A DNA stretch of 64,000 nucleotides, from assembly GCA_001784875.1 (NCBI GenBank), contig MFSH01000023.1:33969-97968 (forward strand). Reading direction: 5' to 3'. The stretch is from Candidatus Moranbacteria bacterium RIFOXYB1_FULL_43_19 (GTDB lineage: Bacteria; Patescibacteriota; Minisyncoccia; Moranbacterales; UBA11712). Below are positions 2,022 through 32,679 of this stretch, piece by piece. The notes under the pieces were generated by a model. It was not told the DNA's origin and ran no database searches. It worked only from the letters and a program-made list of their open reading frames with translations. Position 1 is the stretch's first letter, and every line of letters starts with the position of its first letter. The position numbers and the translations under genes were made by a program.

Positions 2022-4937
2022 TTAGTTGAGCGGAATTGAAAAATAGAAAGTTGTTCCTTTTTCTTCCGCGGAGTCGAACCAGACTTTGGAGCCGGTGAGG
2101 TCGGCAATTGATTTCACCATATAGAGCCCCAGCCCCGCTCCTTCAGAACTCATTTCCTTGGCATTTTCAGCCCGGAAAGTTTTCTCAAAAATCTTTCCTT
2201 TTTGCTTTTCCGGTATGCCGCAGCCCGTATCGCGAACTTCCAACAATACAGCCCCTTTTTCTTTTCTTAGCTCGATGGAAATTTCTCCGCCGGCAGGGGT
2301 ATATCTGATGGCGTTGGAAAGCAAATTATCAAATACTATTTCAAAGCTGTTGGCATTGAAAAACGTCCCAGGAATATTTTCCTGGATTTTTTTTTCAATT
2401 TTTAGTTTCTTTTCCAGAATTATCGGTTCGAACTCTTTCAGCTTGGTTTGAATGACGGAAAGAATATCTAACGGTTCTGTTTCCACGGAAAAAGTTCCCA
2501 TCTCCAGTCGTGAGACATTAAGAAGGTTGTTCACAAGGAGTGCCATCCGCTTTGTTGTCTTATTTATCTCCTCGAGGTATTCCTTCTGGGCGGGTTCCGT
2601 TTTTCCGGCAGTTCCGCGAAGCAATAGTTCTGAAGAAAGAGCGATTGAGGAAAGTGGCGTGCGAAGCTGGTGGGAGGCGAGAGATATAAAATCTTCTTTG
2701 TTTTTTTCCAGCATTTTCTTTTCGGTGATGTCCCGCAAGATCTGAAGTTTGACAGGTGTGCCTTCTGGAGCGGTCATCGGCGTTTCGATAATATCAAATG
2801 TTCTATTCAAATTTTCAAAAAAACATTCCCACCGGACCGATTTTCCGGAGAACACTTCTTTATTCACGCACCAGGGACAGGGCGATTTTCGGCCGTGCAG
2901 GTATTCGAAACACTTTTGTCTTTCAATATTTTGCCCGAAATATTTTTTGAGAGCCGGATTTATGTATGAAATATTATACTCGCGGTTGACGATATATACT
3001 CCATCTTCCATTTTGTTAAGGATTTGTTTTAGCTTCTCTTTTTCATGGTATAGGGCCGCTTCGGCATTCTTGAGTTTTGTGATCTCAGCAGAATAAACAT
3101 TGACATAGGAATCCTTGGCGACTGGAGCAATCGTAATCAGAAACTTTTTATCACCGGCATCCACTTCGATAATCTTCTTGGAGATTTCGCTGATTGCTTC
3201 TTTCACTGCTTTTTCCCATTCTTTTGGTACGGAATCTCCTTTACCAATCTCAAATTTATCAAGAATAATTGTCGAAGCCGGATTTGCATAGATAATTTTT
3301 CCTTCAGACGAAATCCTCATGACTGGATTGGGATTTTCAAGCGGAAACTTGGCAAGGTCGGCTATCTTTTTTTCCGCCATTTTTCTGACAGTAATATCGT
3401 GTACCATTCCGGCAGAGCGAATAATTTTACCGGATTCATCTCGAAAATGTTCGCATTTTTCCTGGACATAGCGAATTTCGCCGCTGGGGCGCAAGACGCG
3501 ATGTTCAATTGCATAAGTGTCGCGGCCATCTCGGATGGAGTTAGAATAAGCTTCATCAACAATTTTGCGATCGTCGGGATGAATCGCCTTGAGAAAAGCC
3601 TCATATGTTGCACCGAACTCTTGCGGTTTGAGACCAAAAATCCGATAAACTTCGTCAGACCAGGTCAATTTGTTCTGGGAAATATCGAGTTCCCAGTTGC
3701 CGAGATGGGCGATTGCTTGAGATCGTTTAAGTCCCTCTTCACTTTCCTTTAGTGCCATCTCCACTTTTTTTCGTTCAGTAATATCCCGAGCAACATGGAC
3801 ACTGCCAAGTAGTTGTCCCTCTCCATTTTTTAGCGGGGTTGTGCTGACAAGAAAATCACCTCCCAAATTAGGCTCGTGCACTTCGCTGATATGTTCTTTG
3901 CCATCGAGCAGACTTTGGGCATGCGGGCACAGTTCGATGGGTCGGTCGCACTTATGGACTGCTTGATAGCATTTCATTCCTATGCAAGCTTCAGCTGTGG
4001 TGCCGAGGCGTTCCGCCATAGCCTTGTTCGCTCGGACTATGCCGTGGTTTTCGTCGAGTATCGCAATAAGGTCCGGAACACTGTTGAAAGTGCGCTCCCA
4101 TCCGTTCTTGGCATCCTGTAAAACTTTTTTGTTTTCGTTCAGCTCCCGAAACATCGAATGGTAGGGTCTCATGAGGCCGAATTCAACCAATGCGAGGTAA
4201 CTTACATAAAAAGCAAGAACCCGCAAGAGGTGGCCGAGTTCATTCGGGAAGCTGTAGACTCCGACATAGAACGCGAAAGTAATTGTCGAAACAAAAAAGA
4301 GCGCGAGCGTGAAAGTTATCAGATGCAGAACGCGTTTTTCCAGGCGGTCTCTGCGTCTCCAGAAAAAATAGAGCGAAAAAATATACGCAGTCGCAACGAT
4401 ATATTCACTGACTTTCTTAAAAGGGGTGAGTCCGGATCCTTCCGCGTAAGCGACGGGAAATATCTTCCAGTAAAAGATCATTGTCAAGAAAAGCGCAAAG
4501 GCGGTCAAATATGCCCAAACAATGGTTTGTGACCTTATTTTCTTCTCTAATAAAAAAGGGGCGATAAGAAAGGTAGTTGCCATAATATATTGATTGGCCA
4601 GCCAAAGTTGAGTGGCAACATTCGAGTCGTTCAATGTTCCGGCCACTACTCCCATACCCCGGTAGGTAAGAGCGTGAATCAGGCTGATCATTCCCGATGT
4701 CAAAAAAGCCATCCCAAAAAAAAGATAGTAATTGTTTTTCACGAATTTTCTGGCATTCCAGGTCAGAAGAAAAATCGCCAGGCTGATAGCCGATCCGAAA
4801 AATTCAGCCAAAACGTGAAAGAGAAGGTAGTTGAAATTGGCCACGATATACAAAACGACCAGAATAAGGCCGATTTGCAATATGCCGACTCTTAAACGTG
4901 TCACAGGAAATTTCGTTATGAAGTTATTGCCTGCCAT
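2022..4937 (-). CDS. multi-PAS sensor histidine kinase with polytopic N-terminal membrane domain
   Basis: C-terminal HisKA H-box (SHQLRTPLSSI) and HATPase_c (DTGCGIPEKQ..GAGLGLYMVK); at least 3 PAS-like segments, two with Cys clusters; ORF extends to 5093, but the MAGNNF start at 4937 avoids overlap with lgt. Confidence 0.85.
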   Translation of the reverse strand: MAGNNFITKFPVTRLRVGILQIGLILVVLYIVANFNYLLFHVLAEFFGSAISLAIFLLTWNARKFVKNNYYLFFGMAFLTSGMISLIHALTYRGMGVVAGTLNDSNVATQLWLANQYIMATTFLIAPFLLEKKIRSQTIVWAYLTAFALFLTMIFYWKIFPVAYAEGSGLTPFKKVSEYIVATAYIFSLYFFWRRRDRLEKRVLHLITFTLALFFVSTITFAFYVGVYSFPNELGHLLRVLAFYVSYLALVEFGLMRPYHSMFRELNENKKVLQDAKNGWERTFNSVPDLIAILDENHGIVRANKAMAERLGTTAEACIGMKCYQAVHKCDRPIELCPHAQSLLDGKEHISEVHEPNLGGDFLVSTTPLKNGEGQLLGSVHVARDITERKKVEMALKESEEGLKRSQAIAHLGNWELDISQNKLTWSDEVYRIFGLKPQEFGATYEAFLKAIHPDDRKIVDEAYSNSIRDGRDTYAIEHRVLRPSGEIRYVQEKCEHFRDESGKIIRSAGMVHDITVRKMAEKKIADLAKFPLENPNPVMRISSEGKIIYANPASTIILDKFEIGKGDSVPKEWEKAVKEAISEISKKIIEVDAGDKKFLITIAPVAKDSYVNVYSAEITKLKNAEAALYHEKEKLKQILNKMEDGVYIVNREYNISYINPALKKYFGQNIERQKCFEYLHGRKSPCPWCVNKEVFSGKSVRWECFFENLNRTFDIIETPMTAPEGTPVKLQILRDITEKKMLEKNKEDFISLASHQLRTPLSSIALSSELLLRGTAGKTEPAQKEYLEEINKTTKRMALLVNNLLNVSRLEMGTFSVETEPLDILSVIQTKLKEFEPIILEKKLKIEKKIQENIPGTFFNANSFEIVFDNLLSNAIRYTPAGGEISIELRKEKGAVLLEVRDTGCGIPEKQKGKIFEKTFRAENAKEMSSEGAGLGLYMVKSIADLTGSKVWFDSAEEKGTTFYFSIPLN

Positions 4938-5046
4938 AAGTTTATACAAGAATGAAAGGCGTTTTATTGTTGAACGAAGCAGGTGCTGGCAATAAAGCGT
5001 TTCATGCCGATTTATTTGTATAGCACAAGGTGTATATTTAGTGAAG

Positions 5047-5874
5047 TCAAGGCCGAAAACCGGAAAATTTTTTGTGAAAAAATAAGGTTGCACCGATTAT
5101 AAGCAGAAAAACAGAAAGCCATTGCCCAAATGTGAGCGACCAAAAAATCCAGCCTTTGTCCGGTTCGCGGAAAAATTCGGCGATGAATCTTGCAATTCCA
5201 TATCCCATCAAATAAAACGAAGTTAGATAGCCGATAGGAAATTTATACTTTCGTAAACTCCATAAAACCGCAAAGAGCAAAATCCCCTCCAAAAAGGCTT
5301 CGTAAAGTTGCGAAGGATGGCGAAGCTGGCCGGAAAAATCCATAGGAAAATACATTCCCCAAAACTTATTCGTAACCCGTCCGTATAATTCCCCATTTAT
5401 GAAATTTCCTAGGCGTCCAAAAGTGAAGGCGAGCGGTACAGCGGGAGCGAACAAATCACTGAATTCTAAAAGATTAATTTTTCGCGTCCGGCAGAAAAGA
5501 TAAAAAGCGAGAGTTAGCCCCAAAAGTCCCCCAAAATAACTCATGCCGTAAATCCCGATGTATTGCCAGTGGTTTCCGATATCAAACGGGAGAAATATTT
5601 GCGAAAGGTGATTTTTGAAATAACTCCAATCGTAAATGAAAACATCTCCCAGTCGCGCGCCCAGCAGAAGTCCGACAATTGCCCACGGGAAAAAATCCTG
5701 GACCGTTTCAAAAGAAATTCCCAAATTTTCGGAACGTATGCGATAACGAATTAAATAATAAGCTATCGCAAAAGAGACCACGTACATAATCCCGTACCAG
5801 GAAACTGGGATTGGTCCGATGGTGAAAGCGATCGGGTTTAGATGCGCGGGAATATTTTGCCAGGCTTGGAGCAT
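5047..5874 (-). CDS. lgt: prolipoprotein diacylglyceryl transferase
   Basis: Lgt signature GRLGNFINGELYG, conserved HPSQLYE, N-terminal IGPIPVSWYGIMY; start taken at MLQAW (ORF runs to 5964). Confidence 0.85.
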   Translation of the reverse strand: MLQAWQNIPAHLNPIAFTIGPIPVSWYGIMYVVSFAIAYYLIRYRIRSENLGISFETVQDFFPWAIVGLLLGARLGDVFIYDWSYFKNHLSQIFLPFDIGNHWQYIGIYGMSYFGGLLGLTLAFYLFCRTRKINLLEFSDLFAPAVPLAFTFGRLGNFINGELYGRVTNKFWGMYFPMDFSGQLRHPSQLYEAFLEGILLFAVLWSLRKYKFPIGYLTSFYLMGYGIARFIAEFFREPDKGWIFWSLTFGQWLSVFLLIIGATLFFHKKFSGFRP

Positions 5875-6046
5875 ATATTTAGTATAGAGTATAAAGTATA
5901 GTGTATAAAGTATCATGTATTTTTTCTTGAAAAAAAGAGCGGTTTGGTGATAGGATAGAAGCAAGTTTATCTATAGGAAAAATTTGGAGGGAGGGATCCG
6001 CAGAACTTTTTTGGCTTAAATTAAATAATAAAATCGATTTTAGGCT

Positions 6047-7045
6047 ATGAATAAGCTAAAAAATACCCTCAAAAAATGGAACTCCATATTTTGCAGTGGA
6101 ATGACCTGTAAGTCCAACATCGGGAGGGATATCGTTGTTCTTTTCCTGTTGATTCTGGTTGCTGCAGTTTTTCTCTATTCAACTGTATATACTCCCATGC
6201 AAGCGGAAAGAAAACCGGCAGTCCAAGCGGGAATTTCCGGCGGTCCCGAGAGTGTCGTCCCTCAAAAAGAAACTTCAGCGCCAATCATGTCGGAAGATAA
6301 TATCTCGAAAGAGGTTGAAAACATAATCAACACAATTGATTCGAGCAACTGGAAAAAAACCAACAACCAGTTCTGGGGTTTTTCAGTGAAATATCCCGGC
6401 GGTTGGCTCTCTCCCAAGAGCCAAAGAAAACCTGCCGGCTCCAAGTGGGAAGCCCGCTATCAATTCAGAAAAAAGGATGCCGGCGGAAATCCTTTTCTCG
6501 GTTTTGACGTCGCAGTTTATGACGTTCCGAAAACGAAGGAACTTCGGAATACTGAAGAATATCCGGTTCCAAAAAATGATAAACCTGATGCAAATAGCCA
6601 ATGCCAAAACATCGAAGGCCATGCAATTGAAATCGATGACTTTCCGGCCGAAGAGATATACATTCCCCTTGGCGATGATTGTTATAATGCCGCTTTGTTT
6701 TTCAGTATTGTGAAAGACAGGTATATCTATAACATCGTTCCAGTTCTCGAGGCCGGAGCCGAGCGGGGAACGGATCCCAGATTGGCCGTAAACGATAATT
6801 TCCCTGACTATTATGCCGCGGCTTCCACTTTGGTTCTTATTGACATTGTGAGGCCGAAACCCGCGCCGCCCAAGCCAAAAATCACCGCGCCAAAACCGGT
6901 GTCGTATAAAGTTGTGGGCGGCAGATTGGTCTGCGCCAAGAAAAACGACAAACCAAGAAAAAGCCGGCAGAACAAGGGGAAGCATCTTGATATGGAATGC
7001 TGTCTTGACCCCGACGAATATCCGAATCCCTGGTGCACGTATTAA
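6047..7045 (+). CDS. membrane-anchored secreted protein, paralog family member A with C-terminal C..GKHxDxxCCxDPDExPNPxCxY motif
   Basis: N-terminal TM anchor; shares GFDV.VY, YxxNIVP, FPxYY..STL blocks and the C-terminal Cys motif with ORFs 15217..15807 and 22088..23068. Confidence 0.6.
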   Translation: MNKLKNTLKKWNSIFCSGMTCKSNIGRDIVVLFLLILVAAVFLYSTVYTPMQAERKPAVQAGISGGPESVVPQKETSAPIMSEDNISKEVENIINTIDSSNWKKTNNQFWGFSVKYPGGWLSPKSQRKPAGSKWEARYQFRKKDAGGNPFLGFDVAVYDVPKTKELRNTEEYPVPKNDKPDANSQCQNIEGHAIEIDDFPAEEIYIPLGDDCYNAALFFSIVKDRYIYNIVPVLEAGAERGTDPRLAVNDNFPDYYAAASTLVLIDIVRPKPAPPKPKITAPKPVSYKVVGGRLVCAKKNDKPRKSRQNKGKHLDMECCLDPDEYPNPWCTY

Positions 7046-7139
7046 GTCCAGAATTGCCACGCAAAGCATCACAGGCGGACTTTTTATACTTTCTTCAGCA
7101 GTTGCCTCGATAAGTACATGAAACTTTAGCTAAAAAAAT

Positions 7140-8636
7140 ATGCCAGTTCAAAATTCCAAAGAAAATCGCAAAAAATGCCTTTGCCCGAACTGTCCGAGTT
7201 ACCCGCATGAATGCGACGGAGAAGTTTTATATTGCGCGGAGAAGGTGGGGCATAGCCAGTGCGACGTGAACGCCAAGGGCTGTCTATGCCCCGGATGTCT
7301 GGTTTGGAGTGAGAATAATCTCAAGGAAATATATTATTGCACGCGCGACACAATAGAACTAGCTTCCGCCCGAGGCGGATCCGCCTTTGGCGGAAAAGTT
7401 GTGATGCGGAAAAAAAAGCCGGACGAGAGCAATGAATTTTATCAGACAGTTGCGGACATAAAAACAATAGCCGAAACAGGCGAGAGCATTGAAAGGCCGA
7501 TGGGTTCGCTCAAGAAGCCGGGTTGCGGGTTATCTCTGGATAATCTGCATTTTGTCCCGGCGCAAGTGGCGAAAATTCCGCTCGACAGGGAAGAAAAAGT
7601 GAAAACTGGTGTTATTATCGGTCCGGTTGCAAAAAAACCGCTCAAAGTTTCATCTCCTATTATGATTACGGGAATGTCTTTTGGCGCGACCTCAAAAAAT
7701 GTGCATCTTGTTATTTCTCGCGTTGCGAAGGAACTGAAAATTGCTTTCAACTCTGGTGAAGGAGGCATCCTTGAAGAAGAATACGAATCAAAGAAATATC
7801 TAATCGGCCAATACGCTACCGGACGATTTGGAATCAATGAAGATGTGATCAAAAAAGTGGCGGCGGTTGAAATTCGCTTTGGACAAGGCGCCTATCCCGG
7901 GAAGGGAAGTTATCTGCCGGCCAAGAAAATGAGCGAAGAAGTCGCGAATCTGCGGGGACTGAAAACAGGCGAACCGGCCTATTCTCCCGCGCACCATCAT
8001 GATATGGAAACGCCAGGGGAAATTGCAGAGAAAGTGAAATGGCTCCGCGAACTGACGGGAGGAGTTCCCATCGGCGCGAAAATCGGCTGTGGAAATGTTG
8101 AGGAAGATGTGAAAGTTTTGGCCGAGGCCGGAATTGATTATATCGCCATTGACGGATTTGGCGGGGGAACAGGTGCGACGGACGCCTATGTCAAAGACAA
8201 CGTTGGGATTCCGGTTTGGGCGGCGATTCCAAAAGCTAATCAAACTCTTCAAGAACTGGGAGCGAGGAAAAATGTTACCCTCATCGCCGGAGGAAGCTTG
8301 CGGCTCTCGGCGGATTTTGCGAAGTGTCTCGCGCTAGGAGCGGATGCTGTTTATATCGGTACGGCCGCGCTCATTGCCATAAACTGCCAGCAGTATCGCG
8401 TCTGCCATACGGGACTTTGCCCGACGGGCGTGACTACCCATCGGCCGGAACTCGCTTCGCAGCTCAATGTCGAAGAAGGCGTCCGAAAATTATCAAACTT
8501 TATAAAAATATCAACCGAAGAAATTGCAGAATTCACAAGAATAGTCGGAAAAGATAATATAAATAAATTATCAAGCGAAGATTTAGTTTCAATAAAAAGA
8601 GATTTGGCGGAAATCCTCGGGGTAAAATGGATATAA
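7140..8636 (+). CDS. glutamate synthase domain-2-like FMN-binding protein (archaeal-type GltB family) with N-terminal 8-Cys module
   Basis: GSLRLSADFAKCLALGADAVYIGTAALIAINC..C..TGLCPTG matches GltB FMN/Fe-S domain; N-terminus CLCPNCP..C..C..CLCPGC. Confidence 0.75.
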   Translation: MPVQNSKENRKKCLCPNCPSYPHECDGEVLYCAEKVGHSQCDVNAKGCLCPGCLVWSENNLKEIYYCTRDTIELASARGGSAFGGKVVMRKKKPDESNEFYQTVADIKTIAETGESIERPMGSLKKPGCGLSLDNLHFVPAQVAKIPLDREEKVKTGVIIGPVAKKPLKVSSPIMITGMSFGATSKNVHLVISRVAKELKIAFNSGEGGILEEEYESKKYLIGQYATGRFGINEDVIKKVAAVEIRFGQGAYPGKGSYLPAKKMSEEVANLRGLKTGEPAYSPAHHHDMETPGEIAEKVKWLRELTGGVPIGAKIGCGNVEEDVKVLAEAGIDYIAIDGFGGGTGATDAYVKDNVGIPVWAAIPKANQTLQELGARKNVTLIAGGSLRLSADFAKCLALGADAVYIGTAALIAINCQQYRVCHTGLCPTGVTTHRPELASQLNVEEGVRKLSNFIKISTEEIAEFTRIVGKDNINKLSSEDLVSIKRDLAEILGVKWI

Positions 8637-9779: not shown

Positions 9780-11027
9780 TTGTCAAATTATTTCAGAGTT
9801 GCGGCAACCCTGGCTGGTTTAAATAATAAGCATATGGAAGGGTTTCTCTTGGTCTTGCGTAAATATAGTAATATGGAAGAAGAAAATTCAAAAAATAATT
9901 ATGGAAGAAGATCTGGCGTTTTTGTTTGGATTAAGGCTTTTATAGCGGTCGGAATCATTCTTTTTGCCTATCAATGGATCAACAATGCAGGTTGGGCAAG
10001 CAAAAGCATAATTGACTCCGAGCTCACGCTTGGAATTTCTTTTCTAACTGGGGTAGCAGCTTCCTTTTCAACATGCCTCGCCGTTGTCGGAGGAATGGTC
10101 ATTGCTTTTTCAGAAAAGTACGAATCCCGGGACAAAAATTTTTTTGCCGGAGTGATTCGGCCGAATCTATATTTCCACATTGGCCGACTGATAACCTTTT
10201 TTTTCTTGGGAGGAATTCTGGGCTTCGTCGGAGGAACGCTCAATATCAGCGGAAATTTTGTCTCCATGTACACCATTGTCTTCGCTGTTGTGATGGGCTG
10301 GCTGGGTCTCAATATTTTAGGAATCCTTCCTCCAATTTCGGCGCTCGGCTGGCGGATGCCAAAAAGCCTGACAAGACTTTGGGCAAAAATGGAAAATTCA
10401 GAGCACCAGGCAGCGCCGTTTCTTTTGGGCGGGCTCACTTTTTTTCTACCTTGCGGGTTTACCCAGAGCACCCAAGTTCTGGCTCTGGTTTCGGGAAGTT
10501 TTTTCGCCGGCGCGCTGGGACTTTTACTTTTTGCGCTGGGAACGATGCCGGTTCTCATGGCGGTGGGAGTTGCCACTTCCTGGGCGCGAAACAAAAAATT
10601 CGAAACTTTTCAGAAAGCGGCCGGAATTCTTATTATCTTTTTTGCGATATTTTCATTTCAAGCGGGTCTAGCGCTCAAAAGTGTGAAAAAAAATGTGATT
10701 TCTAATCCGGTTTCAAATTCAGAAAAAACGCAACTCTCCAAAGTCTTGCCAAACAATTTAGCTGAAAACCAAACGGTGGAAATGAGTGTTACGAGTCGCG
10801 GTTTTGAGCCGGGCAGCTTAAAAATAAAAAAAGGCACGCCGGTCCGCTGGATTATCAGGGGGGTTTCCGTCAGTGGTTGCACCAACCAGATTATTATCCC
10901 CAGTCTGGATATTGCTAAAAACATCAGTTCCGGTGAGAATATAATCAGTTTTGTTCCTCCGGACGTACGTGAAATTCCTTTCAGCTGTGGAATGGGAATG
11001 GTACGTGGGAAATTTATTCTTGAATAA
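9780..11027 (+). CDS. CcdA/DsbD-like polytopic membrane protein fused to C-terminal cupredoxin-like domain
   Basis: TM Cys residues ([15 protein letters not shown]) typical of DsbD_2/CcdA-like proteins; C-terminal beta-domain ending [15 protein letters not shown]; true start likely internal (MEGF/MEEEN). Confidence 0.6.
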
Positions 11028-11095: not shown

Positions 11096-13312
11096 ATGCT
11101 TATGAATCGCAAAAAGACGATGGTAACAATTTCCGGAATGACTTGCGCGAGTTGTGCCGTTTCGAACGAAAAAGAACTCTTGAAAACAAAGGGCATTTTG
11201 GACGCGTCGGTGAATTTCGCGGCCAAAAAGGCCTTTGTCGAATACGACGCGGACGAATTGAGCGAAGATGATGTAAAGAAGGTAATCAAAGACAACGGAT
11301 ACCAAATCGTGGAGCACGAAGAACATAGCATAAAACACAAACACGCCATGGTTATGGAAAACGGCGGTCACGAACATGCCAGCGAAGACATCAAAAATAA
11401 TTGGCAGGCATTTCTTTGGTCGGCCGTTTTTAGCCTGCCGCTTGTTTTGGAAATGGTTTATCAAATCCGGGCTGGTAAAAATATCCTTGGCATTGATCAG
11501 GTGATGTGGCTGCATCTCGTTTTGGCAACGTTTGTTGTTTTATTGTTCGGCTGGAGATTTCACCGAATGGCGTTCATGCAAGCCAAAAAATTTCGGGCCA
11601 ATATGGACACCCTGATATCGCTTGGAACGCTTACGGCTTATTTTTTCAGTTTGTGGGCAATTTTCAACGGGCGGGAGAGTTATCTTGAATCAGCTGCGCT
11701 TATAATCACATTCATTCTTCTCGGTAAATATTTTGAAGCCAAAAGCACGGGACAAGCCGGAGAGGCAATGCGCAAACTCTTGGAGCTGGGAGCAAAAAGA
11801 GCCCGCGTGGTTACGGAGGCCGGAGAAAAAGAAGTGCTCGTCGACGAGATAAAAGTTGGCGATGTGATTGTGGTGAAACCGGGCGAAAAAATTCCACTCG
11901 ACGGAATTGTTCTTGAAGGGGAATCCAACGTGGACGAATCTATGCTCACAGGCGAATCATTGCCGGTAGAAAAGAAAAAATTTTCCTCGATTTTTGGGGC
12001 AACGGTCAATCAGGATGGCGTGCTAAAAATAAAAGTGATGCAGATCGGAGAGCAGACAGTACTGGCGCAGATTATCAAAACCGTTGAGCAAGCACAGAGT
12101 TCGAAAGCTCCCATTCAAAAATTGGCTGACAAGATTTCTGGAATTTTTGTGCCAATTGTGATTGTTCTGGCTGCCATATCTTTCATCGGCTGGTATGGTT
12201 TTTCGGCTGATTTCACAAAAGCTCTGATCAATGCGGTGGCGGTTTTGGTGATTGCCTGTCCCTGCGCTTTGGGCCTTGCGACGCCAGCGGCAATCATGGT
12301 TGGAACGGGAAGGGGTGCGAAGCAAGGAATACTTTTCAAAAACGGGGAAAGCTTCGAAAGGGCAAAAGATATATCGATGATTGTGTTTGACAAAACGGGC
12401 ACGCTGACGAAAGGTCGGCCGGAAGTTGAAAGAGTTTTTGTGAATCCCGGCTTTAATTTCTCGAAGGATAAAATTTTAAAGATAGCGGGGAGCTTGGCGA
12501 AGCATTCCGAACACCCTCTTTCGAAGGCCGTAGCTGATTATATACACAAGAAAAATATTGCCCCAGTGGACATGAAAAATATCAAAGAGGAAAGGGGGAA
12601 AGGAATTTCGGCAGTTTGCGAGGAACACGGAACAAAATTGCTTTTGGGGAATAGAAAACTTTTAGAAGATAACAAAATTGACACAACGTGGGCGCAGGAC
12701 ATTCTGGAATCGGAAGAATTTCAATCTGGAACAAAATTATTTGTTGCGCATGGCAATGAAACCGTGGGCGCGATTGCAGTGGCGGATGAATTGCGAAATG
12801 AAGCGAAAGAAGCTCTGGGCAAGCTGAAAAAGATGGGACTGAAGATTGGAATGATGACAGGCGACAGCAAAAAAACGGCTGAACATATTGCCAAGGCCCT
12901 GGAAATAAAAGATGTCCGAGCTGAAGTTTTGCCCTCGGAGAAGGCGAATGAAATAAAAAGACTTCAGAGTATTGGGGAGAAGGTTGTTTTCGTGGGCGAT
13001 GGGATCAATGACGCGCCGAGCCTTGTTCAGGCTGATCTTGGAATTGCCATGGGATCAGCACAGGATATTGCCAAAGAGGCGGGACAGATTATTCTTGTCC
13101 ACAATAATCTCAAGAAAGTTGTTGAGGCCGTTGCAGTATCCAGGCTTACTTTCAAAACTATCCGCCAGAATCTTTTCTGGGCGTTCGGATATAATGTCGT
13201 TGCTATTCCACTCGCCATGGCCGGGTTCCTGAATCCCATTATTGCGGCGGGAGCTATGGCTTTTTCTTCTGTTTCAGTGGTGTTGAACAGTTTGAGGATT
13301 TATCGGAAATGA
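11096..13312 (+). CDS. copA: copper-translocating P1B-type ATPase
   Basis: N-terminal [17 protein letters not shown] motif ([11 protein letters not shown]), DKTGTLT phosphorylation site, GDGINDAP hinge. Confidence 0.9.
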
Positions 13313-25624: not shown

Positions 25625-25795
25625 TTAGCGGCTATAGACGGAGACAAGGAAAAGCGTGAGGAGAATGACGCAGGTGAGCAACATCAAAACTGCCCCGCCC
25701 ACGATATTCCGGTCTTTGTTATAAAGGCTTGCCAGAAGATACACTAGGCTGAGAATGATAAAAAAGACAAAAACAATAACAACCAATGCCACCAT
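25625..25795 (-). CDS. possible 56-aa small hydrophobic protein (not in ORF track; <60 aa)
   Basis: ATG at 25795, in-frame TAA at 25625; MVALVVIVFVFFIILSLVYLLASLYNK..LMLLTCVILLTLFLV two TM helices. Confidence 0.25.
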   Translation of the reverse strand: MVALVVIVFVFFIILSLVYLLASLYNKDRNIVGGAVLMLLTCVILLTLFLVSVYSR

Positions 25796-25902: not shown

Positions 25903-26466
25903 TTAATTTTTCAATAGCTGGCTAAAATTTTTCCGGAGCTTTGTGATTTTTGGAGAGATATTGGTTTGGCAATATGGTTTTTCCGGATTGTTTGCAAAAT
26001 AATTTTGGTGATAGTCTTCTGCGGGATAAAAATTTTCAAGCCGTTTCACTTCGGTCACGATCTGGTTTTTGAAAATTTTTTCTTTTTCTAATTTTTCAAT
26101 GAATTTTTCCGCTTCATTTTTCTGCTTTTCGTCCGAATAAAGAATTATCGAGCGGTATTGCGTTCCTTCGTCGGTTCCCTGCCGGTTGAAAGTCGTCGGG
26201 TCGTGCATGGCGAAAAAAACAGAGAGTAAATCTTTGAATGCAATTTCTTTCGGATCATAGCCAATCTTCATTACTTCAGCATGGCCGGTTTTTCCGGAAC
26301 AAACTTTTTCATAGGTTGGATTAGGCATGGTGCCTCCAGCATATCCCGAAGTAACTTTGATGACCCCTTTTAATTTTGCAAGGATGGCCTCAAGGCACCA
26401 AAAACAGCCGCCGCCAAAGACAGCTTGGGAAAAATTTTGATTATTCTCCGTCGTCTGGCCCTTCAT
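25903..26466 (-). CDS. msrA: peptide methionine-S-sulfoxide reductase
   Basis: GGGCFWCLEAI active site, GYAGG; start ambiguous (overlaps msrB 3' end). Confidence 0.85.
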   Translation of the reverse strand: MKGQTTENNQNFSQAVFGGGCFWCLEAILAKLKGVIKVTSGYAGGTMPNPTYEKVCSGKTGHAEVMKIGYDPKEIAFKDLLSVFFAMHDPTTFNRQGTDEGTQYRSIILYSDEKQKNEAEKFIEKLEKEKIFKNQIVTEVKRLENFYPAEDYHQNYFANNPEKPYCQTNISPKITKLRKNFSQLLKN

Positions 26467-26860
26467 TTGTTTCGGGCACAAATTTCAAGGCAATTGAATT
26501 GATGCAGTATCTTTTTCCTGTCGGAGGCGGGCCGTCGCCAAATACATGGCCGAGATGCGATCCGCAGCGGGCGCAACGGACTTCTTTCCGGACCATTCCG
26601 CCGGAAGTGTCTTCGAAATATTCCACGTGATCTGGCGCGATAGGCTCAAAATAGCTTGGCCAGCCGGTGCCGGAATCAAACATATCTTTGTGGCGGAAAA
26701 GAACCAAATCGCAAGCGGCGCAATGATAGATTCCGTCCTCGTCTTTTCTCCAGGAACAGGTGAACGGAGCTTCCGTCCCGTATTGACGCATAACCCGGAA
26801 CTGCTCCGGAGTGAGAATTTCCTTCCACTCCTTTTCGGTTTTGTGTATTTTTTTAACCAT
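26441..26860 (-). CDS. msrB: peptide methionine-R-sulfoxide reductase
   Basis: CxxC...CxxC zinc site (CAACDL, CARCGSHLGHVF) and RYCINS catalytic Cys; start at MVKKIH. Confidence 0.85.
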   Translation of the reverse strand: MVKKIHKTEKEWKEILTPEQFRVMRQYGTEAPFTCSWRKDEDGIYHCAACDLVLFRHKDMFDSGTGWPSYFEPIAPDHVEYFEDTSGGMVRKEVRCARCGSHLGHVFGDGPPPTGKRYCINSIALKFVPETNEGPDDGE

Positions 26861-27062
26861 AAAGGTATTTTTTTCAAAAACGGACCCTGCGCGGCCCGTC
26901 CTTGAAATAAATTCGAGGTGATCACCCCAGCACCAATCCCAAATATATATTGTTTGTTTGACTCGCTCCAAACGTGAAGCGGCTTCGCCTGACTTTTTCG
27001 ATTTTATAAAATTTGCGCCGAGGATTGGTGCGGGGTTGCGCTTTGCGATATAATCGCAAAGC

Positions 27063-27257
27063 TTACATTTCGTCCTTCATTTTTTCTTTCATCATTTTCT
27101 TCATTTCCATCATCTCTTCGTCCGATTTTCCCTCCATCATATCCTTATGCATTTCCTTGGCGTGCATCATCATTTTGTCCATGACCTCTTCTTCTGTGGC
27201 GCCTTTGGCGACAAAGTTGTCGCTCATGCCCATGTCCTGGCAAGAAAGCGTTTTCAT
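27063..27257 (-). CDS. DUF1059-like small protein with extremely Met-rich C-terminal tail
   Basis: N-terminal LSCQDMGMSDNFVAKGATEEEVM matches DUF1059 pattern; 17/64 residues are Met (EEMMEMKKMMKEKMKDEM). Confidence 0.6.
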   Translation of the reverse strand: MKTLSCQDMGMSDNFVAKGATEEEVMDKMMMHAKEMHKDMMEGKSDEEMMEMKKMMKEKMKDEM

Positions 27258-27493
27258 AGTTTTTAAATTAAAGGTTATATTAACTAATACTTGATATTAA
27301 GCAATTTATTTCATATTTGAAAGCTATCCTCCCATCCGCTCCACGAGATAGATTGCTCCAGCCTTATCGTCGGAAATAATTCCAAGTGAAAATTCCTGTC
27401 TAGCCTGCTATTCTGATCAAAACTATCATTCTTGATCCTATAAAAATATTTTTTCATGATTCTACTGATCAAAATTTATTATGCAGCTTTTTT

Positions 27494-31728: not shown

Positions 31729-32679
31729 TTGGCAAGCACAGATATTATCGCTTGGATCACGGGCGGCTACGGGAAATATTTTCTGTCCCCATGGTGTATT
31801 GTTATTGTATGGATGTATAAGCTTTCAACCATTCAGATGAATGAGGAAAATCAAAAAAATCAAGGTCAGTCGGCTGACAAGGGAAATTCCGGGATAAAAA
31901 ATTACGGGTGGCTCGCCGCGGCTGTAATAATCGCCGCAATTCTTGGCGGTTATTTCATTTTTCGCAATGACATCCGGAACATGGATCAACTGCCGGACAA
32001 TGTCACGCTCAAAAATGAAACGACGGGCGAGACGGAAACAATCATTTTTGAAAATCCGAAAAAATCCGCGCATTACGAAGGCAATACCCCTTCTCACGGC
32101 GATAAACTTGCCGGAGTTCCGATCAACGTGGTGATTGATTTTAATTTTGATCTCGCGTCTCCTTCGGCGATATCGGTCAAAATGAACGGAAAAGAATACG
32201 GAATCGGAGAAACGATAATTGACACGAACAAATTGTCTATGCGAAAAAAAATGGATCCCGATTCTCCGGACGGTCTCTATGACGTGGCCCATAACGCCTG
32301 TTGGCCTGACGGATCATGCCATGACGGGAAATTCCAGTTTGCGATCGACAGGTCAGGCGCCGGAGATTTTGCGGATCTTCGCGGGCAAAAAGAGGTGATG
32401 ATAAAAATGAAAAATATCGCTTTCGAACCGGGAGAAATCATCATCAGCCCGGGGACCGTCGTGACTTGGGTGCAGGAAGACGACGCGGAGCATTTCGTGA
32501 ACACGGAAACACATCCGGCCCATACCTATTTTCCGGCACAAAATTCCCGCGGTCTCAAGCTCGGCGACACTTTCTCGACGACATTTGAAAAGCCGGGAAT
32601 ATATCCCTACCATTGCAGCGCCCACGCGAGTGTCATGACCGGAACGATTCTGGTGATCTCCCCCGAAGTCGAAGTTTAG
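31729..32679 (+). CDS. membrane-anchored protein with C-terminal cupredoxin (plastocyanin/azurin-like) domain
   Basis: Type-1 Cu ligands H (ETHPAH)...YHCSAHASVM (C-x2-H-x3-M); N-terminal TM; start may be internal (MNEEN at 31837). Confidence 0.7.
   Translation: MASTDIIAWITGGYGKYFLSPWCIVIVWMYKLSTIQMNEENQKNQGQSADKGNSGIKNYGWLAAAVIIAAILGGYFIFRNDIRNMDQLPDNVTLKNETTGETETIIFENPKKSAHYEGNTPSHGDKLAGVPINVVIDFNFDLASPSAISVKMNGKEYGIGETIIDTNKLSMRKKMDPDSPDGLYDVAHNACWPDGSCHDGKFQFAIDRSGAGDFADLRGQKEVMIKMKNIAFEPGEIIISPGTVVTWVQEDDAEHFVNTETHPAHTYFPAQNSRGLKLGDTFSTTFEKPGIYPYHCSAHASVMTGTILVISPEVEV

Follow-up and report, generated by a model that had tools for sequence, protein, structure and literature searches.

In a 64,000-nucleotide (nt) stretch of contig MFSH01000023.1 from Candidatus Moranbacteria bacterium RIFOXYB1_FULL_43_19 (hereafter the window, meaning the whole stretch), a small gene on the minus strand, at positions 27063-27257, encodes a 64-residue DUF1059 protein that is exceptionally rich in methionine. 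It is followed on the same strand by msrB and msrA, the genes of the two methionine sulfoxide reductases. We favor a reading in which this protein would serve as a cytoplasmic methionine sink, oxidized in place of other proteins and recycled by MsrB and MsrA. Judging from sequence, gene order and a predicted structure, we give this reading a probability of about 45%. It is supported by the conservation of the Met pattern among homologs and by the recurrence of the msr genes downstream of them.

The open reading frame (ORF) translates as MKTLSCQDMGMSDNFVAKGATEEEVMDKMMMHAKEMHKDMMEGKSDEEMMEMKKMMKEKMKDEM. It contains 17 Met in 64 residues (26.6%), in agreement with the original prediction, made from the letters of the window alone, of a 64-residue protein with 27% Met; D, E, K and R account for 42% of the residues. 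The Met background is 2.1% (12,313 residues from 28 long ORFs) in this window of 44.6% G+C, which gives a binomial probability of 2e-14 for at least 17 Met among 64. No second plausible Met-rich ORF was found in the window. The N-terminus, MKTLSCQDMGMSDNFVAKG, has no hydrophobic stretch when read directly rather than with a signal-peptide predictor, and the AlphaFold2 model places residues 2-5 in a strand of the domain. With neither an export signal nor a membrane anchor seen on such direct reading, the protein is predicted to be cytoplasmic.

The protein scores 34.2 bits with Pfam DUF1059 (PF06348), for which the gathering cut-off is 21.1, residues 1-50 corresponding to positions 1-48 of the 56-position profile. 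No other Pfam family, copper families included, was matched at E <= 1, and the NCBIfam search gave no match at E <= 10. AlphaFold2, run on a 27-sequence alignment, predicts that all 64 residues are folded, with a predicted local distance difference test score of 87.4 and no segment below 50. The predicted order is strand 2-5, strand 16-19, helix 22-36, helix 38-41, helix 46-59 and strand 61-62. An alignment of 199 distinct family sequences shows that other DUF1059 proteins have the C-terminal helix too, with its ending (I/M)(K/R)(D/E)E. The Met residues are spread over the whole protein, 10 of the 17 being located before residue 47. Overall, the entire 64-residue protein appears to be a single DUF1059 domain, Met-rich throughout. 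The original prediction had seen a DUF1059-like N-terminus carrying a Met-rich tail: the DUF1059 part holds, whereas the appended tail does not, as the helix in question belongs to the predicted fold.

The homolog search yielded 27 protein clusters, most of them exactly 64 residues long. All close homologs come from Moranbacteria/Patescibacteria; we refer to them as the clade, and 37 of the 199 aligned sequences belong to it, the other 162 being further DUF1059 members. The Met pattern is kept almost position by position in 25 of the 27 clusters. Of the 16 internal Met positions, 15 keep Met at a frequency of 57-97%; the exception is Met31, at 19%. Ten distinct orthologs of 64 codons were compared in pairs: synonymous differences have a median proportion of 0.78, at saturation, and nonsynonymous differences one of 0.14. 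The ratio of nonsynonymous to synonymous rates is approximately 0.09, as estimated from the 18 of 45 ortholog pairs with a finite synonymous rate. These values indicate that the small ORF is a real gene under strong purifying selection. Low-complexity or compositional drift as the source of the Met residues was tried and is ruled out, since the Met pattern is kept while synonymous sites are saturated. The original prediction turned on whether orthologs lack the Met-rich tail; in the 25 clusters they retain it.

The Met residues fall into two sets when compared with the rest of the family. About nine occupy positions that are hydrophobic elsewhere (9, 11, 26, 29, 30, 41, 52, 56 and 60). About eight others (31, 36, 40, 49, 50, 55, 58 and 64) stand where other members have a polar residue or none and, because of these substitution patterns, are probably exposed to solvent. 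A profile search of 1.84 billion representative proteins returned 937 DUF1059 members at E <= 1e-3. The Met content is 19-27% in 14 distinct clade sequences versus 2-8% in canonical DUF1059 members, which were recovered with their loci from metagenomes through the shared FVAKG motif and have a median of 3.3% Met (39 sequences) and two Cys arranged as C-x6-C. Three DUF1059 proteins of other lineages (labeled P0056, P0107 and P0050) are independently Met-rich, at 19-22%, and keep both Cys.

The second line of evidence is the neighborhood. The msrB gene (26441-26860, minus strand) encodes a methionine-R-sulfoxide reductase of 139 residues, counted from a conserved ATG at 26860 (Pfam SelR, 155 bits). 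The msrA gene (25903-26481, minus strand), which overlaps the end of msrB, encodes a methionine-S-sulfoxide reductase (Pfam PMSR, 226 bits). The N-terminus of MsrB is conserved in orthologs, and its start codon lies 202 nt past the stop codon of the small gene. The distance of some 200 bp to an msrB-msrA pair that had been claimed is therefore correct, and the two enzymes are precisely the stereospecific pair needed for reversing Met oxidation.

This arrangement extends beyond the window. Loci were gathered by exact-protein look-up and by scanning metagenome and genome collections for patterns, and MsrB and MsrA were placed by tblastn; 14 distinct clade loci with enough downstream sequence were counted. 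In nine of them, the small gene has msrB, usually with msrA, downstream on its own strand. The small gene is directly followed by msrB and msrA in the window, in L010, in L006/7/11 and on the P0006 contig, and by msrB only in L001-3/L067. In L065 a PAP2 gene, in L077 a PAP2 and a Metallophos gene, and in L070 a small opposite-strand ORF come between the small gene and msrB-msrA, while the msr genes of L071 are a decayed, chimeric remnant. The flanks vary among the msr-linked loci and include VTT/DedA, a GSDH-like dehydrogenase, cold-shock, PEBP and an extracytoplasmic function (ECF) sigma factor. Outside the clade, 24 DUF1059 loci extend 1.5 kb or more downstream of the gene, and msrB is absent from all of them. 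Fisher's exact test of clade versus non-clade loci gives p = 1e-5, a value that ignores shared ancestry and so overstates independence. The link to the Msr genes is thus supported by other loci with differing flanks.

Several neighboring features of these loci were also noted. L070 (DATGZC010000047.1) is labeled as a Candidatus Bathyarchaeia archaeon metagenome-assembled genome, but the contig is probably mis-binned; its Met-rich gene, msrB, msrA and a flanking gene are 61-66% identical to the Moranbacteria versions and stand in the same order. A GSDH/TrAA12-like dehydrogenase gene (409-410 residues) lies between VTT/DedA and the small gene in L001-3, L067 and L010, and not in the window. In the corresponding 236-nt gap of the window (27258-27493), about 35-40 nt at 27324-27364 resemble the 3' end of the dehydrogenase gene in a by-eye alignment; tblastn found no dehydrogenase remnant in the window.

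A number of observations weigh against the methionine sink. No msr gene is found within 4-5 kb in L004, L005/L068, L066, L069 and L073, where the Met-rich gene is intact. The Met-rich gene of L071 is likewise intact, with 17 Met, while its msr genes are reduced to a chimeric 112-residue ORF (L071:3401-3743) that joins MsrB residues 1-35 to MsrA residues 20-66 and 165-191; coverage of this contig is about 1x, and an assembly error is possible for the remnant. The three independently Met-rich DUF1059 proteins of other lineages have no msr neighbor either. The linked loci share one ancestral arrangement, and inherited gene order explains part of the signal. A hairpin followed by a U-run in front of msrB, described below, could equally mean two separately transcribed units. 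Finally, the invariant Cys6, Asp13, His32 and His37 look like a retained metal site, for which a pure sink has no need. Because of the five msr-less clade loci and the three unlinked Met-rich proteins elsewhere, the coupling to msr genes is a trait of the clade that is frequent yet not obligatory. The Met counts of msr-linked and unlinked clade members do not differ significantly (Mann-Whitney p = 0.07, with very small numbers). A general rule by which a Met-rich DUF1059 protein implies msr genes was also considered, and failed on P0056, P0107 and P0050.

Taken to their end, such observations would describe an ordinary DUF1059 protein, possibly metal-related, with msrBA as merely inherited neighbors and no functional coupling, in which Met would by chance occupy the hydrophobic and helix positions of this lineage. 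The loci and lineages lacking msr fit this description, and each clade gene has its own terminator. In addition, this DUF1059 subfamily often has Met at its hydrophobic positions anyway: the 126 short proteins among the 150 best profile hits have a median of 10% Met, several unlinked lineages reaching 19-22%. However, that list is biased toward Met because the query profile is itself Met-rich, and the canonical loci found through FVAKG have the far lower median given above. The linkage has also outlasted synonymous saturation and rearrangements on both sides, and where PAP2 or Metallophos genes were inserted, the small gene and the msr genes stayed together. Moreover, the fold does not demand the approximately eight Met at family-polar positions. 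We therefore regard mere neighborhood as unlikely.

One further gene bears on the history of the msr-less loci. In the window, a small membrane protein (25625-25795, minus strand; 56-86 residues in the various loci, MVALVVIVFVFFIILSLVYLLASLYNKDRNIVGG...) is encoded just past msrA. It recurs further downstream in L001 (7154-7348) and, in the msr-less L005 (4353-4613), directly after the Met-rich gene. This last position suggests that msrBA was lost from the ancestral arrangement in L005.

The non-coding sequence around the small gene bears on how it may be expressed with msrBA. Promoter-like elements are read from the sequence at 27277-27304 on the minus strand (TTGCTT, a 16-nt spacer, TAATAT), about 20 nt before the ATG. 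The same layout of a -35/-10-like pair is present in L010 and L003, below the threshold of a consensus scan, and the promoter in front of the small gene is a putative one. No clear Shine-Dalgarno sequence was seen before the gene. Directly after the stop codon, a perfect 10-bp palindromic hairpin (27040-27062, minus strand) carries no U-tract on the gene strand; it is shared by the window and L003 and is absent from L010 and L007. A structured spacer (26924-27039, minus strand) follows, found in the window and L003 only, as an insertion relative to L010 and L007. Palindrome and spacer together make about 140 nt of extra sequence in the window and L003. This extra stretch might be an insertion, a small RNA or a separate promoter region for msrB. 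The 211-nt intergenic region as a whole has a predicted RNA folding energy of -78.8 kcal/mol (z = -6.4). An Rfam search of 24-30 kb gave nothing near any gathering score, and the intergenic hairpins do not belong to a known RNA family.

Between the spacer and msrB, a G+C-rich, terminator-like hairpin with a U-run (26867-26912, minus strand) ends 7 nt before the msrB start codon. It is conserved in the window, L003, L010 and L007, with changes that preserve the stem. In L010 and L007 it is the sole element between the small gene and msrB and ends about 15 nt before the msrB start. As this leaves no room for a separate msrB promoter in these two loci, we infer that the small gene and msrBA are co-transcribed from one promoter, with partial read-through of the hairpin.

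A Met-rich ORF followed by a terminator-like hairpin just before msrB also brings to mind a leader peptide, whose Met codons would control msrBA by ribosome-dependent attenuation at the hairpin. We rejected this explanation as extremely improbable. A 64-residue Pfam domain with a confidently predicted fold and selection on its non-Met residues is not what a leader calls for; five loci encode it ahead of a terminator and unrelated genes, and no antiterminator pairing is evident in the short spacers of L010 and L007.

Upstream of the small gene, a second type of conserved region is found in L004 (3955-3995), L012 (846-886), L013 (392-432), L071 (1290-1325) and L077 (3895-3930), and also in L069, L070 and L066. 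Before the ATG, these loci have in order an A/T-rich promoter-like stretch, TTAATTTATATTT, a hairpin in the 5' untranslated region and a conserved UAUCCAAAC. Double, compensatory changes are observed in 9 of the 15 predicted pairs of this hairpin, and the stem-loop could stabilize the mRNA or be regulatory. The upstream region of the window, L010 and L003 differs from this type.

The residues other than Met raise the question of a metal site. His32 and His37 (H-x4-H, first helix) are invariant in the clade and are found in 162 and 161, respectively, of the 162 other family members. The family Cys pair, C-x6-C before F-V-A-x-G, is incomplete here: Cys6 is present, and the second Cys is replaced by Asp13 in the window protein and in 35 of the 37 clade sequences, whereas it is a Cys in 151 of the 162 others. 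A change from Cys to Asp keeps a metal ligand and not a disulfide, which favors the family Cys/His residues as a metal site. Hence, Cys6, Asp13, His32 and His37 form a putative metal site that is kept in the clade. We found no solved DUF1059 structure and, in the literature searched, no described function, the family being mentioned only in passing.

These residues also open the way to another interpretation, in which the protein would be a small metal binder, probably of Cu(I), whose Cys/His site is supplemented by Met ligands that MsrB and MsrA keep reduced. The (near-)invariant Cys6, His32 and His37 and the exchange of the second Cys for a ligand residue, which would be unexpected for a disulfide role, are in line with this. 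So is a clade-specific Met cluster around the His residues (M29xxH32, H32xxxM36, H37xxM40/M41). Homologs carry the JGI label "predicted small metal-binding protein", and copper genes lie near the small gene in four loci: CopA at 1.3 kb in L073 and 3.3 kb in L004, and a cupredoxin gene at 3 kb in L080 and 4.5 kb in the window. The CusF-MsrPQ pair of E. coli offers a precedent (PMC9302797).

Location and gene context speak against a copper binder. The protein has neither signal peptide nor membrane anchor on direct reading, and its Pfam matches at E <= 1 include no copper family. The characterized Met-based Cu(I)/Ag(I) binders (CusF, CopC/PcoC, SilE/PcoE and the CueO insert) are extracytoplasmic, whereas cytoplasmic Cu(I) carriers use Cys. 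The Met enrichment is protein-wide and includes the distal C-terminal helix, instead of being confined to one site. Copper genes are never adjacent or co-oriented, and none lies within 5 kb at most clade loci. CopA is found within 1.3-3.3 kb in 2 of the 14 loci, never co-oriented, and its proximity in L004 and L073 mirrors the gene order of the window and may be mere synteny. A copper-binding role is thus improbable on present evidence: the Cu(I)/Ag(I) idea of the original prediction keeps the His/Met motifs and the copper genes near four loci as weak support, and lacks any export signal or adjacency.

The window had also been described as rich in copper proteins. Three are indeed encoded: a DsbD_2-cupredoxin fusion (9780-11027, plus strand), a CopA-type P-type ATPase (11096-13312, plus strand) and a plastocyanin-like protein (31729-32679). 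However, these genes lie 4.5-17 kb from the small gene, outside its transcription unit; the nearest are the cupredoxin at 4.5 kb and CopA at 14 kb, on the other strand. In L073, a matching cupredoxin-domain ORF and CopA (4359-7902, minus strand) lie 1.3 kb from the small gene and are convergent with it, as in the window. In L004, the 3' end of CopA followed by a Metallophos gene (6-698) lies 3.3 kb from it. The copper genes of the window, L073 and L004 may be left over from a shared gene order or point to a weak link with copper. L073 also has, between its Met-rich gene and CopA, a 75-residue ORF (3789-4016, minus strand) with the start MCYNCGC and a His/Asp-rich end, HGHGLDHDHDHDHSKS, which looks like another small metal-binding protein.

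The methionine-sink reading, which we prefer, can be stated as a sequence of steps. In a folded DUF1059 protein, hydrophobic and many surface positions would have been replaced by Met. The exposed thioethers would react with HOCl, H2O2 and chloramines to give Met-R- and Met-S-sulfoxides. The stereospecific MsrB and MsrA would restore Met and spend a thioredoxin-type reductant; no CGPC-type thioredoxin motif was found in window ORFs of at least 70 residues. In this way the small protein would take up oxidants in place of other proteins and be recharged. The promoter before the small gene and the terminator-like hairpin before msrB would yield much sink and less enzyme. A fuller version, to which we hold a little more tentatively, is that the ultra-small Moranbacteria converted a DUF1059 metal-binding mini-fold into a cytoplasmic antioxidant Met buffer that enzymes recharge, transcribed ahead of msrB-msrA with a leaky terminator in between.

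The adjacency to msr genes would also suit a redox switch or partner binder, in which the Met surface binds a client, oxidation releases it and MsrB and MsrA reset the system. Met-rich domains are known to mediate protein-protein interactions, and their oxidation alters function (review PMC8076862). The compact fold and the conserved non-Met residues F15, A17, G19, H32 and H37 suggest more than a passive sink. On the other hand, no conserved partner gene besides msrBA is observed across the loci, and the small protein contains no DNA-binding or enzymatic domain. Sequence data do not distinguish such a switch from a sink, and we rate it as clearly the less probable of the two, at long odds. The oxidation of Met is chemically inevitable for a protein with so many thioethers. 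The step common to the sink, copper and switch readings, that the Met residues are oxidized and that MsrB and MsrA reduce them, is probable and can be held with more confidence than any of these readings alone.

If the sink model is right, Msr-recycled sacrificial Met-rich proteins would not be only periplasmic and proteobacterial; the cytoplasm of Candidate Phyla Radiation (CPR) bacteria would harbor them as well. It would also provide a first testable function for one branch of the widespread DUF1059 family. As a compact, folded, single-Cys protein with 27% Met, the small protein could be of use as an Msr substrate or as a reporter of Met oxidation. The linked and unlinked clade members would constitute a natural experiment on the dependence of the sink on its reductases.

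Compared with canonical DUF1059 proteins, the clade agrees in length, in the N-terminal MKxLxCxDxG...FVAKG, in the invariant His32 and His37, and in how the C-terminal helix ends. It differs by 19-27% Met instead of 2-8%, by an Asp in place of the second Cys, and by msr linkage at 9/14 loci versus 0/24. With CusF, CopC/PcoC, SilE/PcoE and the CueO insert, it shares MxxM, MM, MxxH and HxxM spacings on helices. These Met-rich Cu(I)/Ag(I) binders are exported, however, whereas the small protein would be cytoplasmic, matches none of their families and has no copper gene in its unit. An Msr system of E. coli, MsrPQ, maintains the Met ligands of CusF in the reduced state (PMC9302797).

A further comparison is provided by MRP1-6, natural Met-rich proteins that are readily oxidized, especially by hypochlorite, and that MsrA and MsrB together with thioredoxin reduce fully (Liang et al. 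2012, PMC3514235). Like the small protein, they exceed 20% Met, contain few Cys and are predicted to have secondary structure. They are longer (roughly 120-210 residues), mostly carry signal peptides and were chosen as assay tools; a genomic link to msr genes is not reported in that study.

The closest functional parallel would be MrpX of Azospira suillum PS, a strongly induced periplasmic protein with 20% Met and 44% charged residues (Melnyk et al. 2015, PMC4436054). MrpX is oxidized by hypochlorite and regenerated by the co-transcribed YedY1 (MsrP) (PMC4436054). We set the two proteins side by side by composition and context, not by sequence comparison, and propose that they are analogous. 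Composition is similar, each being a small protein that consists almost wholly of Met and charged residues (20% Met and 44% charged residues for MrpX, 26.6% and 42% here), a methionine sulfoxide reductase is encoded alongside on the same strand in both cases, and the proposed logic, sacrificial Met oxidation followed by enzymatic regeneration, is shared. There are also differences. MrpX has a signal peptide and resides in the periplasm of a proteobacterium, whereas the small protein lacks a signal peptide. The reductase partners are the molybdoenzyme MsrP (YedY1) with MsrQ (YedZ1) in one case and the thiol-based MsrB and MsrA in the other. The mrpX gene, under SigF/NrsF control, is downstream of its reductase; the small gene precedes msrB and msrA, and its product is a folded DUF1059 protein with a Cys/Asp/His/His site. 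In L006 (2023-3380) and on the P0006 contig, an ECF-type sigma factor gene and a gene of about 260 residues, possibly an anti-sigma factor, stand just downstream of msrA in convergent orientation; this may be a parallel to SigF/NrsF or a coincidence.

In the literature searched, we found no description of a cytoplasmic DUF1059-Msr system. A Met-rich sacrificial protein served by a methionine sulfoxide reductase is already known as a kind of system. The new elements would be the cytoplasm, MsrB and MsrA instead of MsrP, a DUF1059 scaffold with a putative metal site, and a CPR host. Should this hold, the periplasmic MrpX-MsrP hypochlorite scavenger would gain its first counterpart in the cytoplasm, one coupled to thiol-based Msr enzymes.

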